Source: Nannocystis pusilla
GTDB lineage: Bacteria; Myxococcota_A; Polyangia; Nannocystales; Nannocystaceae
NCBI RefSeq assembly: GCF_051105105.1
Contig: NZ_CP185339.1
Length of the DNA stretch: 64,000 nt
Strand: one strand, 5' to 3'
Under the pieces are notes generated by a model. The model was not told the DNA's origin. It made no database searches and saw nothing but the letters and a program-made list of their open reading frames with translations. Position numbers and translations under genes: made by a program. Shown here one piece after another: positions 20-55,258 of the stretch. Each line of letters begins with the position of its first letter. Position 1 is the stretch's first letter.

Positions 20-2144
20 ATGGCCCTCGATAGGGATCTGATCGGCGCCGTGATCGCGGAGCGTTGGGAGGTGGTCGAGCACCTCGGCGCAGGCGCCATG
101 GGAATGGTCTATCGCGCCCGCCACATCCAGCTCAAGATCGACGTGGCGATCAAGGTGCTGAAGAAGACGGCCGGCCTGACAGCCTCCGATATCGCCCGGT
201 TTTATCGCGAGTCGCAGCTCATAGCCTCGCTCGACCATGACCACATCGTCCGCGTCCAGGACACCGGCAAGACCGCGAACGACGATCTGTTCTTCGTGAT
301 GGAGTACCTGCGGGGGCCGAACCTGCGCACGCTGCTGCACCGCGAAGGGCCCCTGTCCTGGGCGCGCACCCGGACGATCCTCCTGCAGGTCTGCGACGCT
401 TTGAGCGCGATTCACGGTAGCGGCATGGTCCACCGCGATCTCAAGCCGCACAACATCGTCCTCGACCCGCGGCGAAACCATCCCGACTTCGTCAAATTGC
501 TCGACTTCGGCGTCGCCAAACCGCTCGGGGAGGACCGCCAGCACCTCACGCAAACCGGCTTCATCGTCGGGACTCTGCCGTACATGTCCCCCGAATATCT
601 GCTGGGCCACCCGGTCAACGTCCGGATCGACATCTACGCGCTGGGCACCATCGCCTTCGAGCTCGTCACCGGGCGCCTGCCTACGACCAACCCGGCCACC
701 AATGAGGCGATGCTCCGATCGCACGGCGTGCCCGCCGCGGCCCAGGTTGTCATCGCGCGGGCCATGGCCCGCGACCTCGAGCAGCGCTACGAAGACGCGG
801 ATACCCTGGCCGCCGCGCTGAGCGCGACGCCGGCCGACGCCGGAACCGAACCCGAGGAGTCCACCACGACGCGATTCACCGCCAGCCCCGGTAAAGGGCT
901 CCTGGCTGCCGATCGCTTGACCGTGTCGGTCCCGGACGGTGACTCCCAGGCGATTACGAACGCGAACCCGGAGCCGCTGCCGTTGACCCCGACGGTCCGC
1001 CGCCAGCCGTCGCTGCGCCTGGCCGACAAACTCTTGCCCCCTCCCGACCGCTCGGACCCGGCTCGTACCACCGTGCACGAAGCGATATCGGCCTCGTCCA
1101 CGGACCACTTGCCGCCTCCCACCACCCCGGTCGCCCGTCTCGCACCGTCCCATGCCGAGCCCCGCCCGAAGGACGTCGCGAGCGAGCCCACGGCACCCGC
1201 GTCCGCACCGACGGAACTAGCCGCGACACGGCCCACTATCGCAAGCCCGTCTCCGATCTCGCCGCATTCGCCCCACCGCTCGGCCCCGTCGCCCTCGCCG
1301 CCGAGCCCGGTCTCCGCCACACCGGCCTCGCGCCTCGGGACGCTCGCGCCGACCACGACGCGAGATCCCGTCCCATCGCCCGCCGCGGCAAAGCCCCGAC
1401 CGCCCGAAGTCCCACCGACCCTCTCGCAATCCGCGGAATCCTCCCGGCGCGAAGCGGTGATCGACCCCGCCCAAACCACCTCCGATCGCACCCCTGCTCG
1501 CTTCTCGCGCGCTCCTGTGCGGTGGGCGACCTATGCGGGGCTCGCCGTGGCGGCTGGCGCGCTCTTCTACAGCCTCGGGAAGGGGCCGCCGGACGAACCG
1601 ACCCCTCCCCCCGTCTCCGCGCCGAAGACGGAGACCCCGGCCCCGCCTCCTCCACACGAGGTCCCGCCGGTCCCTCCCGAGCCCGCGAGCGACCCGACGC
1701 CAGAAGAGGCCTTCCACGACCGGCGAAGAGCCCGGAGCAAGAGGCACCACCGACCCCGACGAATCGCCCGTCTCCGGCGCCCCCGACGGTCTCATCGCGT
1801 CCCCGCCCGCGGCCGACCCCACCGACCCGCCCGAGCCCGCGAAGCCGAAGAGTACGAAGTCACCCTCTCCCGGTTATGCAGCCTTCAAGAAGCTGAGACC
1901 GGCGATTACGAAGGCAGTGTTTGAGTGCGGCGCTCACCATCACGCGTCTCGCGGCGATTATCTCGACATCCACATCACCCTGGACGGCGAGAACGCGAAG
2001 ATCGGCGCCATCGTGCTAGGTCCGCCTTTGCGAAAGAAAGACCCGGTCGCAAGATGCGCCGAAATGCTCATCTCGAATGTCCCGGGCCGAAAATTCCCCG
2101 GCGATAAATACTTGACCGAGAAAGAATTCCTCCTCGCCAAGTAA
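20..2144 (+). CDS. Ser/Thr protein kinase (Hanks-type) with Pro-rich linker, single TM helix and a C-terminal extracytoplasmic domain; apparent +1 frameshift near 1700-1740
   Basis: Kinase motifs GAGAMGMVY, VAIK, HRDLKPHNIVL, DFG, PYMSPE in ORF 20..1924. The tail of that frame is Arg-rich junk with A-rich third positions. A well-formed C-terminal domain (AAFKKLRPAITKAVFECG...KEFLLAK) lies in ORF 1533..2144 in the +1 frame. Confidence 0.7.
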
Positions 2145-2158
2145 ACGCCGTCGAGGCA

Positions 2159-53600: not shown

Positions 53601-55258
53601 CTCGCCATCCACGACCTCACCCGGCTCGACGCGAGCCCGGCGCCCCCCGCCACCGCCCCGGCGTGACCGACCGCGCTCCCCCCGACGACGCCGCCCGCCT
53701 CCGCGCCGAGGTCGCGCGGCTGACCGCGCTGCTCGCCGACACCAACGAGCACCACCACCGCCTGCGCGACGCCCTGATCGTCCGCAGCGAGACGCTCGAG
53801 GGCCACGTCCAGGCGCTCGAGACCATGCTCGACTGGTACGCCGACCTCTACGAGCACGCGCCGATCGCCTACCTCGCCCTCGACGGCAACGGCGTGGTGC
53901 GCGAGGTCAATCTCACCGGCGCCTCGCTCCTCGGCATCGAACGCCTGCGCCTGATCGGCCGCCCGATGCGCCTGCACGTCGTCCTCCGCGACCGCCGGAA
54001 GTTCCTCGATCACATGCTGCGCTGCCGCCGGGCGGCCGGGCCGGTCGTCACCGAGCTCGAGATCGAGGCCCGCAGGCGCCTCGTCCCGGTCCAGCTGATC
54101 AGCCGCCGGTCCGACGTCGCCGGCGAGGCCGGCACCTACTTCCGCACCGCCGTGTTCGACCTGACCGAGCGCCGGCGGGCCGAGACCGACCTCCGGCTCG
54201 AGCACGAGCGCCTCAGCCTGGCGCTGATCGCCTGCGGCGCCGGCCTCTACGACTATTCGTGGCCCGCGGCCGACCTGACCCCGAGCGAGCGCTGGTGGCA
54301 GCTCGTCGGCCGCCCGCCCGGCGAGCCGCCCCAGGGCGCCGCGCTGTGGCAGTGGTTCCAGTCCCGGATCGTCCCCGAAGACCGGGCCGCCCGCGACGCC
54401 GCCCACGCCCGCTTCGTCGCCGGCGACTCGACCGCCTACGCCGCCGAGTTCCGCCTCCTGCGCCACAACCGGACCCCCGTGTGGCTGCGCGAGCTGGGCC
54501 GCGCCGCCGAGCGCAGCGTCGAGGGCCACGCGCGCCACGTCGTCGGCGTGCTGATGGACATCACCGCCGAGAAGCAGCGCATCGAGGCCGCGGCCCACCA
54601 GACCGCGCTCCTGCGCGACCTCTCGGCGGCGCTGTTTCGCGTCGAGGAGAACGAGCGGCGCGAGCTCGCCACCCTGCTGCACAACGTCCTCGGCCAGCAG
54701 CTCGTCGCCGCCCGCCTGCAGCTGGGCGCGCTGAGGCCGGCCGGCGGCGACGCCGACGCGGTCCGCGAGGTCGTCGCCCTCCTCGACGACGCCCACCAGG
54801 CGGTCCGCTCGGTCACGTTCCAGCTGCGCCCGCCAATCTTGCAGGACCTCGGCCTCGTGGCCGGCCTGCGCTGGCTGGCCCGCGAGACCTCGGCGCAGTT
54901 CAAGCTGCCGATCGCCGTGATCGCCGAGGACAGCCTGCCGCGCCTGGCCGGCGACCCCGAGTACCTGCTGTTCCGCTGCGTCCGCGAGCTGCTGCTCAAC
55001 GTCGTCAAGCACGCCGAGGCCACCGCGGCCCGCGTCGAGGTCGGCGGCGACGAGGACGACATCCTCGTGATCCGCGTCAGCGACGACGGCAAGGGCTTCG
55101 ACCCGCCCAGCCTCGCCGCCGACCGTCCGGAGAGCCGCAGCTTCGGCCTGCTCAGCGTGCGCGAGCGGATCATCGGCCTCGGCGGCCACGTGCGCATCGA
55201 CAGCGCCCCCGGCCACGGCACCCGCGTCGAGCTGCACGTCCCGCTCGCTGACGGCTGA
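50639..55258 (+). CDS. multidomain signalling protein: CheB methylesterase - CheR methyltransferase - EEL-heptad coiled coil - PAS - PAS - HisKA_3 - HATPase; two frame changes (+1 near 51940, -1 near 53640)
   Basis: CheB part VVVIGASAGGLEAF...VVLSGSGVDGSAGL. CheR part IRLWLPGCSTGEEAYSVAIAL...CVFARQ, then (next frame, ORF 51984..53666) CRNVLIYM. Coiled coil [54 protein letters not shown]. PAS domains. HisKA_3 H-box (LATLLHNVLGQQL) and HATPase (GHGTRVELHVPL) back in the original frame. Confidence 0.7.
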   Translation: MPSTPTSPLQPDTTAVEAVDESEDDAPADTSRRAGLSLVVVIGASAGGLEAFTDILDALPADLGVAFVYMAHQASGRDSALGDILHVHTSMPIVLVKDEVPLEPDHLYLAPPGIQLTVAELRLVPAPRPEDRTQYTPIDVLMASLAKELETCAVGVVLSGSGVDGSAGLREIKGVGGITIVQDPETARYDSMPRAAIATGSVDLVLPPARIAEELQRIGRHPYVRSASSRRPGDELVIHQEQLHRIFTMLRNASGVDFTHYKPPTIRRRLRRRMVLHKLDSVEQYIKYMRENPEEVAKLYQDLLIHVTRFFRDPDSFRALASEVFPQIMQQRRGLAPIRLWLPGCSTGEEAYSVAIALIEFLGEESSAVPVQIFATNVSETAIEHARNGLYADSIAADLSPERLRRFFTKTDGKYRIAKVVRDLCVFARQERHPRPAVLQARPHPLPQRAHLHGRGAAAQADDRLPLRAQAVRIFDARRRRDRRGPGRPVRGHRQEAPDLRQATDRDPLQLPDPRRIHPQSLTPPRRALAHRDAHAPLFPERGQSPGPRSLRAAGRDRRRELPDHPVSRQDRLLPRARARRRRPEPQPAQDGPRGPAPRPPDRALRRPQVRQAGPQAGPPGHAQRHPPRARPPRHPAGGARRGAPLPGPVRGGRERRRGGARGRPVPAAAALVGRRAGQAVARGARGQPRVPAVDHPGPRGRQRGAAVGQRGDPVEQRGAAEHQRGARHRQGGAAEHQRGAQHRQRGAPRPQRGAVAGQQRPRQPARLRRDRHRHRRLRPQHPPLHADGREGAQPDPDRHRPPDQPDQAQHRVPGPREDDRPGHRHRDDPGDERPRQRGQLVRAADPPLQERREPDRRRRPGAVRHRQPPPRARAPPGPRRHPRHRRGRASAARRARRPPARPGHQPRLHRDVRPVQRRRPAPPRLRPRRRHLGRPAAAPPARRRPAPPGPLRRLPRRARVRARRADAARRRRRPHRRRRPGHGPRRARHPRPHPARREPGAPRHRPGVTDRAPPDDAARLRAEVARLTALLADTNEHHHRLRDALIVRSETLEGHVQALETMLDWYADLYEHAPIAYLALDGNGVVREVNLTGASLLGIERLRLIGRPMRLHVVLRDRRKFLDHMLRCRRAAGPVVTELEIEARRRLVPVQLISRRSDVAGEAGTYFRTAVFDLTERRRAETDLRLEHERLSLALIACGAGLYDYSWPAADLTPSERWWQLVGRPPGEPPQGAALWQWFQSRIVPEDRAARDAAHARFVAGDSTAYAAEFRLLRHNRTPVWLRELGRAAERSVEGHARHVVGVLMDITAEKQRIEAAAHQTALLRDLSAALFRVEENERRELATLLHNVLGQQLVAARLQLGALRPAGGDADAVREVVALLDDAHQAVRSVTFQLRPPILQDLGLVAGLRWLARETSAQFKLPIAVIAEDSLPRLAGDPEYLLFRCVRELLLNVVKHAEATAARVEVGGDEDDILVIRVSDDGKGFDPPSLAADRPESRSFGLLSVRERIIGLGGHVRIDSAPGHGTRVELHVPLADG

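Follow-up and report, generated by a model that had tools for sequence, protein, structure and literature searches.

Recurrent single-base insertions at short palindromic motifs in a nanopore-only Nannocystis assembly are very probably consensus errors

The window considered here is a stretch of 64,000 nucleotides from Nannocystis sp. UBH4 (CP185339; 12,213,092 bp), with protein products listed under the accessions XWX07309, 07319, 07320, 07323-25, 07337, 07348, and XWX15684. It contains, all on the forward strand, genes for several sensor kinases, a CheB/CheR fusion protein, glycosyltransferases, and other enzymes, many of which are interrupted by a change of reading frame. The UBH4 genome was assembled from ONT MinION R10.4.1 reads only, using Guppy v6+, Flye 2.9.2+, and medaka 1.11+, without short-read polishing (PMC12766979). 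Kits and software versions vary between the isolates in the methods of the same study (PMC12766979).

The sites of the frame changes were located with a GC3 frame model, three-frame translations, Pfam domains that span the junction after removal of one base, and DNA alignments. In the alignments, the segment from 6.5 to 63.7 kb of the window was compared with whichever relatives align in each stretch, i.e., the PacBio-assembled strains ILAH1 and RBIL2, the R9.4.1-based assembly of Na p29T, the R10.4.1-based assembly of MIELM, and, over the parts that aligned, an N. bainbridge assembly. Judged against these sister strains of ~95% DNA identity, rather than against UBH4 itself, 12 frame-breaking coding indels in this segment are private to the window. 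All of them are +1 insertions, as the earlier note on this DNA had claimed of the frame changes in the genes, and none is a deletion. Both PacBio-assembled sisters (~95% DNA identity) cover all 12 sites and lack the insertion, and the extra base is absent from every relative aligned across a given site. Seven insertions are of the type GA[A]CGTC, three are of the type GAG[C/G]CTC, and two consist of a T before CTG. The extra base duplicates an adjacent base in 11 of the 12, the one at 29647 being the sole exception. No homopolymer deletions were found in the window across the ~57 kb compared with relatives, and no motif bias was seen among its private substitutions.

The gene for a thrombospondin-type-3-repeat protein (9699-11142) carries an extra C at 10308/9 (GAG[C]CTC), and its two halves are listed by NCBI as separate proteins (XWX07319 and XWX07320). 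When repaired, the protein is covered for 100% by full-length homologues of 483-491 aa. The hybrid kinase gene at 14013-17399 encodes a protein with the architecture CHASE3-GAF-HisKA-HATPase-3xREC. It contains three insertions of identical type, i.e., an extra A in CTCGA[A]CGTC, at 15640/1, at 16379/80 in the first receiver domain, and at 17352/3, 15 codons 5' of the stop, but is otherwise perfect. The HisKA domain stops at the junction at 15640/1, the junction at 16379/80 becomes a receiver-domain motif after repair, and the Response_reg match of the repaired protein (residues 1009-1120) crosses the junction at 17352/3 (residue 1112). The repaired kinase of 1127 aa has the same length as the orthologues in ILAH1 and RBIL2 (1127 aa). 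In the REC-HisKA-HATPase-REC gene (18808-20281), an extra G is found at 19707/8 (GAG[G]CTC); in the repaired product of 490 aa, which equals its orthologues in length (490 aa), the HATPase_c domain (250-360) crosses the junction at residue 299. The extra bases in these three genes are all absent in L087, L091, and L092.

The gene for an FAD-dependent oxidoreductase (24850-26275) has an extra A at 25619/20 (TTCGA[A]CGTC) that is absent in L082 and L083-L086. Its repaired product measures 474 aa vs. 474/475 aa in relatives, and dN/dS downstream of the site is 0.25. A 173-aa gene in the heptose/LPS-core cluster (28798-29320) contains an extra T at 29066/7 (GC[T]TCTGG), and its repaired product matches the 173 aa of its counterparts; this site is of the same kind as the others but was not listed in the earlier note. 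In the group-1 glycosyltransferase-like gene (29308-30430), the extra base is located at 29647 (GACGTC[T]CTG). After repair, the ORF is free of internal stops, and dN/dS downstream of the site is 0.29. The extra bases at 29066/7 and 29647 are absent in L081 and L083-L086.

Three further insertions are absent in L081-L086. The short-chain dehydrogenase gene (32398-33139) has an extra A at 32600/1 (CTCGA[A]CGTC); after repair, the adh_short domain (12-197) crosses the junction at residue 67, and the length is 246 aa vs. 246 aa. The gene for a GmhB-like HAD phosphatase (33136-33721) has an extra C at 33496/7 (GAG[C]CTC), and the Hydrolase_like domain (106-173) of the repaired protein (194 aa vs. 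194 aa) crosses the junction at residue 120. The family-9 glycosyltransferase gene (36697-37885) carries an extra T at 37004/5 in GACG[T]TCGAG, the reverse complement of CTCGA[A]CGTC; its repaired product has 395 aa vs. 395 aa, with a dN/dS of 0.28 downstream of the site. Finally, the CheB/CheR-PAS fusion gene (50639-53666) contains an extra A at 51930/1 (GGA[A]CGTC), absent in L089 and L090. The repaired protein has 1008 aa vs. 1009-1011 aa in relatives, and its CheR domain (307-497) crosses the junction at residue 431.

Thus, deletion of one base per site results in ORFs of orthologue length, or nearly so, without internal stops. Purifying selection was assessed in seven genes. In six of them, dN/dS downstream of the site ranges from 0.15 to 0.33, similar to the upstream part, whilst the seventh, with a segment of 74 codons, showed too few differences. 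With these results, most sites proposed earlier are accounted for: all six YTCGAACGTC sites, one of them as reverse complement, the three GAG(c/g)CTC sites, and the gacgtcTctg site in the glycosyltransferase gene were located at the coordinates given above. The insertion in CheR is real as well, but it lies at 51930/1 and not at 51940. The overall claim of eleven +1 frame changes holds for ten by our count (11 coordinates were located, or 12 with 29066/7), but the change in a kinase near 1720 is unproven.

This Ser/Thr kinase gene is annotated from 20 to 1924 and would end at 2144 if repaired. At ~1650-1800, its GC3 phase passes from frame +1 into frame +2, and the tail as annotated is rich in Arg, which suggests a candidate +1 insertion at 1700-1730. 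A search for homologues of the +2-frame tail yielded none, and the 634-aa product is intact in the NCBI record. A -1 change had also been proposed, in a C6 run at ~53640, but it is rejected. No indel was found around this run vs. L089 or L090, and the C6 is identical in L089. Instead, a conserved GTGA stop/start overlap at 53663-53666 connects two intact genes, i.e., the CheB/CheR gene, which ends at 53666, and a PAS-HisKA_3 kinase gene (53663-55258), which begins at the GTG at 53663. The relatives likewise have separate genes for a CheB/CheR protein of 1009-1011 aa and a kinase of 531 aa, and the window's kinase (531 aa vs. 531 aa in relatives) is annotated as intact (XWX15684.1).

Ten of the 12 sites lie within or directly abut the palindromic hexamers GACGTC and GAGCTC. 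Both are abundant, with 51 and 75 occurrences, respectively, in 64 kb, where ~16 would be expected for an average hexamer. The existence of intact GACGTC sites, pointed out before, is evident from 44 such sites in the window, next to 72 intact GAGCTC sites, and the penetrance is accordingly low, i.e., 7/51 (14%) for GACGTC and 3/75 (4%) for GAGCTC. The motif specificity claimed in the earlier note stands for GACGTC: seven of the 12 insertions fall within it, in the same slot and with the same inserted base, whereas 20,000 simulated random placements gave five at most. The association with GAGCTC is weaker, because this is among the commonest hexamers of this genome. Furthermore, two insertions split neither hexamer, the one at 29647 being located just after a GACGTC and the one at 29066/7 being near neither. 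GAGCCTC on one strand reads as GAGGCTC on the other. The 11-mer CCTCGACGTCT has the extra base at 16380, whereas an identical copy at 63783 is intact.

The insertions are private to the assembly, motif-specific, and uniformly +1, and their removal yields normal genes under purifying selection. Very probably, the extra bases are absent from the organism's genome and arose as consensus errors in the nanopore-only assembly. The earlier reading of a systematic long-read artefact is borne out by the sequencing strategy, the 12 private indels, and the PacBio-assembled sisters without insertions. The errors presumably arise at base-calling or polishing. The base-caller and polisher would add one base at recurring contexts, mainly at YTCGACGTC, less often at CGAGCTCG, and twice as a T before CTG. 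Since the extra base duplicates its neighbor in nearly all cases, a single base appears to have been read as two. Polishing by medaka probably left the errors in place, as it used the same reads, in which the miscall is systematic. As each error shifts the frame by +1, annotation splits the gene, calls a pseudogene, or, in high-GC DNA, yields long chimeric ORFs. The biological novelty of these observations is nil, and their practical value is caution about this public record.

That the UBH4 genes were truly and recently inactivated by a motif-directed +1 insertion process is very unlikely. In its favor, every insertion is confined to a single lineage, as expected of a recent mutation, and the sequence is not contradicted by data from UBH4 itself. 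However, 12 frameshifts per 64 kb would amount to ~2,300 genome-wide, every event has the same direction and motif slot, and the assembly is based on nanopore reads only. Moreover, the hybrid kinase would have acquired three insertions whilst remaining otherwise undamaged, and genes of the LPS-core heptose pathway are among those affected. As had been anticipated, pseudogenization is also at odds with the lack of decay in the repaired genes, which show no stops, length changes, or relaxed downstream selection. Even further from probable is that the extra bases are real but bypassed by programmed +1 ribosomal frameshifting or transcriptional slippage. Like prfB-type frameshifting, the changes are +1 and lie inside otherwise intact genes at a recurring local sequence, and thus formally resemble a recoding signal. 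In contrast to the prfB type, conservation of the sites is lacking, and in every relative, even in strains of 95% identity, a single frame encodes the proteins; no prfB-type stop or rare codon was seen at the sites; and unrelated genes within 64 kb are affected in error-prone data, the nanopore-only provenance being the simpler account.

If the extra bases are consensus errors, their context specificity may stem from DNA modification or from a shortcoming, independent of modification, in the model used for base-calling or polishing, and the two are about equally probable. DNA methylation, by UBH4 methyltransferases acting on sites of the GACGTC and GAGCTC types or on a single degenerate palindrome, e.g., GASSTC, has slightly less than an even chance; modified bases would alter the nanopore signal or the dwell time and thereby cause the call of an extra base. 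The position of most sites at two palindromes resembling Type II R-M hexamers fits this option, as does the strand mirroring of GAGCCTC and GAGGCTC. Partial penetrance is also seen in modification-linked ONT errors (PMC12392509), and 5mC at nearly all GRGCYC sites, which include GAGCTC, is documented in high-GC bacteria (PMC11649196). On the other hand, no methyltransferase gene was found among the window ORFs scanned, the penetrance is low, and the events at 29066/7 and 29647 lie outside the hexamers. The modification-linked errors described in PMC12392509 are miscalled bases, and no such miscalls cluster at these motifs in the window. A context weakness or version mismatch of Guppy/medaka that doubles single bases in GC-rich k-mers, with the hexamers being prominent partly by abundance, is likewise just short of an even chance. 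It would agree with the over-calling of one base as two in 11/12 events, the abundance of both hexamers, the substitutions without motif bias, the variation in kits and software (PMC12766979), and the hundreds of errors introduced by long-read polishing in some genomes (PMC12392509). However, seven events at one palindrome slot are far more than motif abundance can account for. The 11-mer that is wrong in one place and right in another, together with the low penetrance, fits neither a simple deterministic k-mer model nor full methylation. At these conserved sites, the MIELM assembly, made in the same laboratory and on the same platform, is free of the insertions, so the cause is specific to the run or to the strain; strain-specific methylomes would account for this, and the correct reading of the same sequences in MIELM counts against a context weakness.

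Motif-linked ONT errors that affect part of the motif occurrences, as well as errors added by long-read polishing, have been described (PMC12392509, with Lohde et al. and Dabernig-Heinz et al. cited there on motif- and modification-associated ONT assembly errors). The errors in the window are similar in several respects: the assembly is nanopore-only and polished with long reads alone, and the errors recur partially at short, often palindromic motifs and are mostly coding, thereby disturbing annotation. Unlike those miscalled bases, the verified errors in the window are all single-base insertions, and any methylation at the motifs is putative here. Related assemblies show error types of their own: in MIELM (GCA_049060185.1), ~19 single bases are deleted from C/G runs over a stretch of 14 kb, and Na p29T has 2-nt deletions in GC repeats. 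Thus, indel errors specific to the platform occur in the long-read assemblies of this group. As in MIELM, the errors in the window are single-base length miscalls, 11/12 being run-length miscalls of one base as two, which cause frameshifts, split genes, and survive long-read polishing. However, the deletions in MIELM shorten C/G runs of at least four bases, whilst the errors in the window add one base to single bases within specific motifs.

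Multiple alignments with syntenic DNA of relatives, covering approximately 6.5 to 63.7 kb, revealed 12 indels in coding DNA that are private to the window, and each of them is a single-base insertion (+1). Private deletions that break a coding frame were not found in these alignments. With the extra base in brackets, the insertions are located in the genes for a TSP3-repeat protein (10308/9, GAG[C]CTC), a hybrid kinase (15640/1, 16379/80, and 17352/3, each CTCGA[A]CGTC), a REC-HisKA-HATPase-REC protein, further called REC-HK-REC (19707/8, GAG[G]CTC), an FAD oxidoreductase (25619/20, TTCGA[A]CGTC), a 173-aa protein (29066/7, GC[T]TCTGG), a GT1-like glycosyltransferase (29647, GACGTC[T]CTG), a short-chain dehydrogenase (SDR; 32600/1, CTCGA[A]CGTC), a GmhB-like HAD phosphatase (33496/7, GAG[C]CTC), a family-9 glycosyltransferase (GT9; 37004/5, GACG[T]TCGAG), and CheB/CheR (51930/1, GGA[A]CGTC). 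All 12 are missing from both PacBio-sequenced sister strains, ILAH1 and RBIL2, which, at ~95% identity, serve as a proxy and are not strain UBH4 itself. Private one-base indels in intergenic DNA (13219, 13610, 13727, 13807, 23581, 9590, 47906, and 60374) have both signs and are indistinguishable from natural variation.

The origin of the sequence is relevant here. The window has a G+C content of 72%. Its HldE (33862-35322) is identical to XWX07337.1/WP_434415989.1 of Nannocystis pusilla, and several further window proteins have neighboring XWX accessions from the same contig. The genome of Nannocystis sp. UBH4 was reported by the isolating laboratory as one contig of 12,213,092 bp, CP185339 (PMC12766979). 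For all isolates, that study used an Oxford Nanopore MinION with an R10.4.1 flow cell, base-calling by Guppy v6+, assembly by Flye v2.9.2+, and correction by medaka v1.11+; short reads are not mentioned in the methods (PMC12766979). The window is part of a nanopore-only assembly without independent polishing. Among the matches listed, a search of genome contigs with HldE gave only distant relatives, with at most 56% identity and no Nannocystis among them; the locus was assigned to Nannocystis by protein search, and syntenic DNA was then taken from six assemblies. ILAH1 and RBIL2 (PacBio Sequel, HGAP) each show ~95% DNA identity to the window. N. pusilla Na p29T (GCA_026626665.1; Oxford Nanopore R9.4.1) and Nannocystis sp. 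MIELM (GCA_049060185.1; Oxford Nanopore R10.4.1, from the same study as UBH4) are also close relatives, and N. bainbridge, from a PacBio-sequenced set of novel strains (PMC10435759), and a further N. pusilla assembly are more distant. Platforms are as given in PMC10435759 and PMC12766979.

The insertions can also be recognized without relatives. A GC3 frame model showed abrupt +1 changes in plus-strand coding DNA, with no stop or start between the frames, at approximately 10308, 15641, 16380, 19708, 25620, 29062, 29648, 32601, 33496, 37005, and 51931. In three-frame translation, the proteins run on in the next frame; for example, KIEAGMLE is continued by VRPETISL, AIVLE by VSLPDRSG, and VFARQE by VTRDPPFSKLDLILCRNVLIY. 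The site at 17352, which the model did not register because a stop codon is too near, is as plain by eye in the translation as the others. Deletion of one base restored long ORFs at each of eleven sites. Thus, of the eleven +1 frame changes that an earlier note had reported from the sequence, ten are borne out by the model, the translations, and the alignments, and the insertion at 29066/7 is an addition to that list.

After repair, the products have the lengths of their orthologs and no internal stops. All genes in question are intact in ILAH1 and RBIL2, where they encode the hybrid kinase of 1127 aa, REC-HK-REC of 490 aa, the oxidoreductase of 474/475 aa, the 173-aa protein, the glycosyltransferase of 352 aa, the SDR of 246 aa, the HAD phosphatase of 194 aa, GT9 of 395 aa, and CheB/CheR of 1011 aa. 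Pfam domains (Response_reg, HATPase_c, adh_short, Hydrolase_like, and CheR) extend across six of the 12 repaired junctions, and a HisKA domain ends at a junction. The hybrid kinase gene carries three insertions of identical type and is otherwise perfect. Were these genuine pseudogenes, additional lesions would be expected, but there are no extra stops or length changes, and dN/dS relative to the PacBio strains is 0.15-0.33 downstream of the lesion in six of seven tested genes, similar to the range upstream; in the seventh, the downstream segment of 74 codons contains too few differences to judge. The genes are therefore otherwise intact and under selection, and genuine pseudogenization is very improbable. 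So is programmed +1 frameshifting, as the sites are not conserved and each protein is encoded in one frame in every relative examined. The GT1-like protein of the window measures 373 aa vs. 352 aa in ILAH1; its C-terminus contains a 36-nt coding repeat (30235-30400, 4.6 copies) giving a GCPEGQLVAPxx peptide repeat, the copy number of which may differ by strain.

The insertions are systematic, recurring in the same sequence contexts and in a single direction. Seven of the 12 are located inside GACGTC, in the identical slot (GA^CGTC) and with the identical base. When twelve random window positions were drawn in 20,000 repeats and the maximal number in one hexamer was recorded, five was the highest value (six runs of 20,000), and seven was never reached. 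The effective context is narrower than the hexamer: YTCGACGTC, on either strand, is affected at seven of 12 sites vs. one of the 39 remaining GACGTC sites. Longer flanks did not separate affected from unaffected GACGTC sites. GAGCTC holds three of the other five insertions, a weaker link given its 75 occurrences in the window. The affected share amounts to 14% of GACGTC and 4% of GAGCTC sites. Altogether, ten insertions are in or beside one of these hexamers; the one at 29066/7 is in neither, with GACGCC 2 nt upstream. In all cases but 29647, the adjacent base is duplicated.

An assembly artifact of the nanopore-only sequence, as the earlier note had proposed, is by far the best explanation, and we hold it with high confidence, because of the nanopore-only origin, the intactness of the repaired genes, the errors in sister assemblies, and the rate, which would be implausible if the insertions were real (12 per 64 kb, or ~2,300 genome-wide). 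The private, motif-bound +1 insertions and the absence of gene decay agree with that proposal. The insertions are almost certainly not a biological feature, the genes being intact in the organism. It is very improbable that the extra bases are truly in the UBH4 chromosome, either by motif-directed +1 insertion, e.g., when an enzyme of the restriction-modification type cuts or modifies a site and the repair is error-prone, or in combination with widespread +1 recoding at GAACGTC/GAGSCTC. In the artifact, one base would be read as two at particular contexts by most reads, or by most reads of one strand, and the extra base would then be kept by the consensus and the long-read polisher. Motif-linked errors at only some occurrences of a motif, mostly in coding sequence, have been described for R10.4.1 assemblies, and long-read polishing can itself introduce errors (PMC12392509).

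What would trigger such misreading may be methylation by AatII-like and SacI-like enzymes or a weakness of the base-calling or polishing models that is independent of modification, and we give the two about equal weight. The palindromic hexamers are of the restriction-modification type, the two variants seen at GAGCTC mirror each other across the strands, penetrance is partial, and MIELM has no errors at the same conserved sites, all of which would suit methylation. However, an identical 11-mer has the extra base at 16380 and is intact at 63783, two insertions are outside both hexamers, and all lesions in the window are insertions, whereas its 175 private substitutions are not biased toward the motifs. 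Furthermore, no methyltransferase domain was found in the ORFs scanned in the 64-kb window, although the earlier note expected the gene elsewhere in the genome. Both hexamers match GASSTC as well as GRCGYC and GRGCYC, which are known degenerate sites. This idea of a degenerate site, drawn in part from PMC11649196, is a lead that may bear on methylation as the cause, and the motif pattern could hint at the UBH4 methylome.

The nanopore assemblies of relatives have errors of other types. In MIELM, single bases are missing from C/G homopolymers at ~19 positions private to this assembly over 14 kb (alignment to window 23750-37947). Na p29T, the type-strain assembly, has lost 2 nt at private sites in GC dinucleotides or CC and also shows deletions of 1 nt. 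Thus, long-read-only assemblies of this genus carry many indels, the type of which depends on the run. Most of the heptose/LPS-core genes are broken up by the MIELM deletions, and the errors in Na p29T split the genes for the hybrid kinase, REC-HK-REC, and a GT9. The number of CDSs reported is 14,925 for MIELM vs. 11,265 for UBH4 (PMC12766979).

A thirteenth insertion is probable near 1720, in a Ser/Thr kinase gene, as judged from coding signals. Between approximately 1650 and 1800, the frame indicated by GC3 changes from +1 to +2, and the C-terminus of the annotated kinase becomes Arg-rich, whereas frame +2 keeps a Pro/Asp/Thr-rich linker. In the NCBI annotation, the 634-aa kinase product is intact. 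Among 1.8 billion representative proteins, the +2 C-terminal peptide (1750-2144) matched only its own 75-aa ORF (protein entry P0394), which has no contig on record; a metagenome scan gave no relative of this tail, and Pfam no domain. Third-position G+C in 1750-2144 is unusually low for the genome, ~0.72-0.75 in the best frame.

Several other candidates were rejected. No frameshift affects the gene at 4678-5634 on the minus strand (GAACGTC at 5702): its ORF of 318 aa is complete, and the frame change there has the wrong direction to result from a +1 insertion. The differences at 5378, 15115, 16309, 18274, 10605/10872, and 22840, each seen in one relative only, are assembly errors of Na p29T (R9.4.1); at these positions, the window ORFs stay open and the PacBio strains side with the window. 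Frame changes at 18804, 24860, 28796, 30380, 33125, 35310, 40443, and 61149 merely mark the passage from one gene to the next, according to three-frame translation. The −1 change that had been suggested at 53640 proved not to be an indel, the C6 run there being the same as that of RBIL2. The nearest CheB/CheR homologs, of 1006-1019 aa, cover only the first 64-65% of the hypothetical fused protein. In RBIL2 and Na p29T, a gene for 1009-1011 aa is followed, with a 4-base overlap, by one for a PAS-HisKA_3 kinase of 531 aa. The window has the same arrangement, with a GTGA overlap at 53663-53666, and the 531-aa product is annotated intact as XWX15684.1. At 55215-55418, a 52-nt unit is repeated four times in tandem, starting in the last codons of the kinase gene (VELHVPLADG-stop) and extending into the intergenic spacer.

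If 12 insertions per 64 kb are extrapolated to 12.2 Mb, CP185339 probably holds in the order of 2,000 false frameshifts. At NCBI, the halves of the TSP3-repeat gene are separate proteins, XWX07319 and XWX07320. Guessed products of the other broken ORFs are absent from the protein collection, which would fit flagging as pseudogenes and, equally, wrong guesses of start codons. Incorrect frames remain open in high-GC DNA, so that long chimeric ORFs arise in the uncorrected sequence. One of 1539 aa (50639-55258) comprises the first part of CheB/CheR, a middle section that is out of frame, and the following gene, and one of 996 aa (29308-32298) leads from the true start of the glycosyltransferase, via an out-of-frame stretch, into the frame of the gene behind it. 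Both would be presented as fused proteins by naive gene callers. Pan-genome, orthology, and biosynthetic-cluster work on CP185339, or on the far more error-laden MIELM, will be affected; beyond caution over these two references, the insertions are of low interest.

Further features of the window were noted. On the minus strand, 3851-3901 matches the nhaA-I RNA (Rfam RF03057) over its full length (51.6 bits; gathering score, 37); the match lies upstream of an ORF on that strand. Between a glycosyltransferase-like gene and a gene for 179 aa, an intergenic array at 47945-48497 repeats a 46-nt unit ~12 times and shows higher-order periodicity at 137 and 183 nt. Two more intergenic tandem arrays of ~3 copies each, at 45250-45676 (period 83-102 nt) and 57944-58291 (period 43-63 nt), have no clear coding signal. 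Between the GT9 and AraC genes, ILAH1 and RBIL2 contain a segment of ~3.9 kb (13774-17688 in their syntenic loci L085 and L086), which is absent at 37894-38927 of the window; it comprises four genes, the first with AAA_21/AAA_15 ATPase domains.
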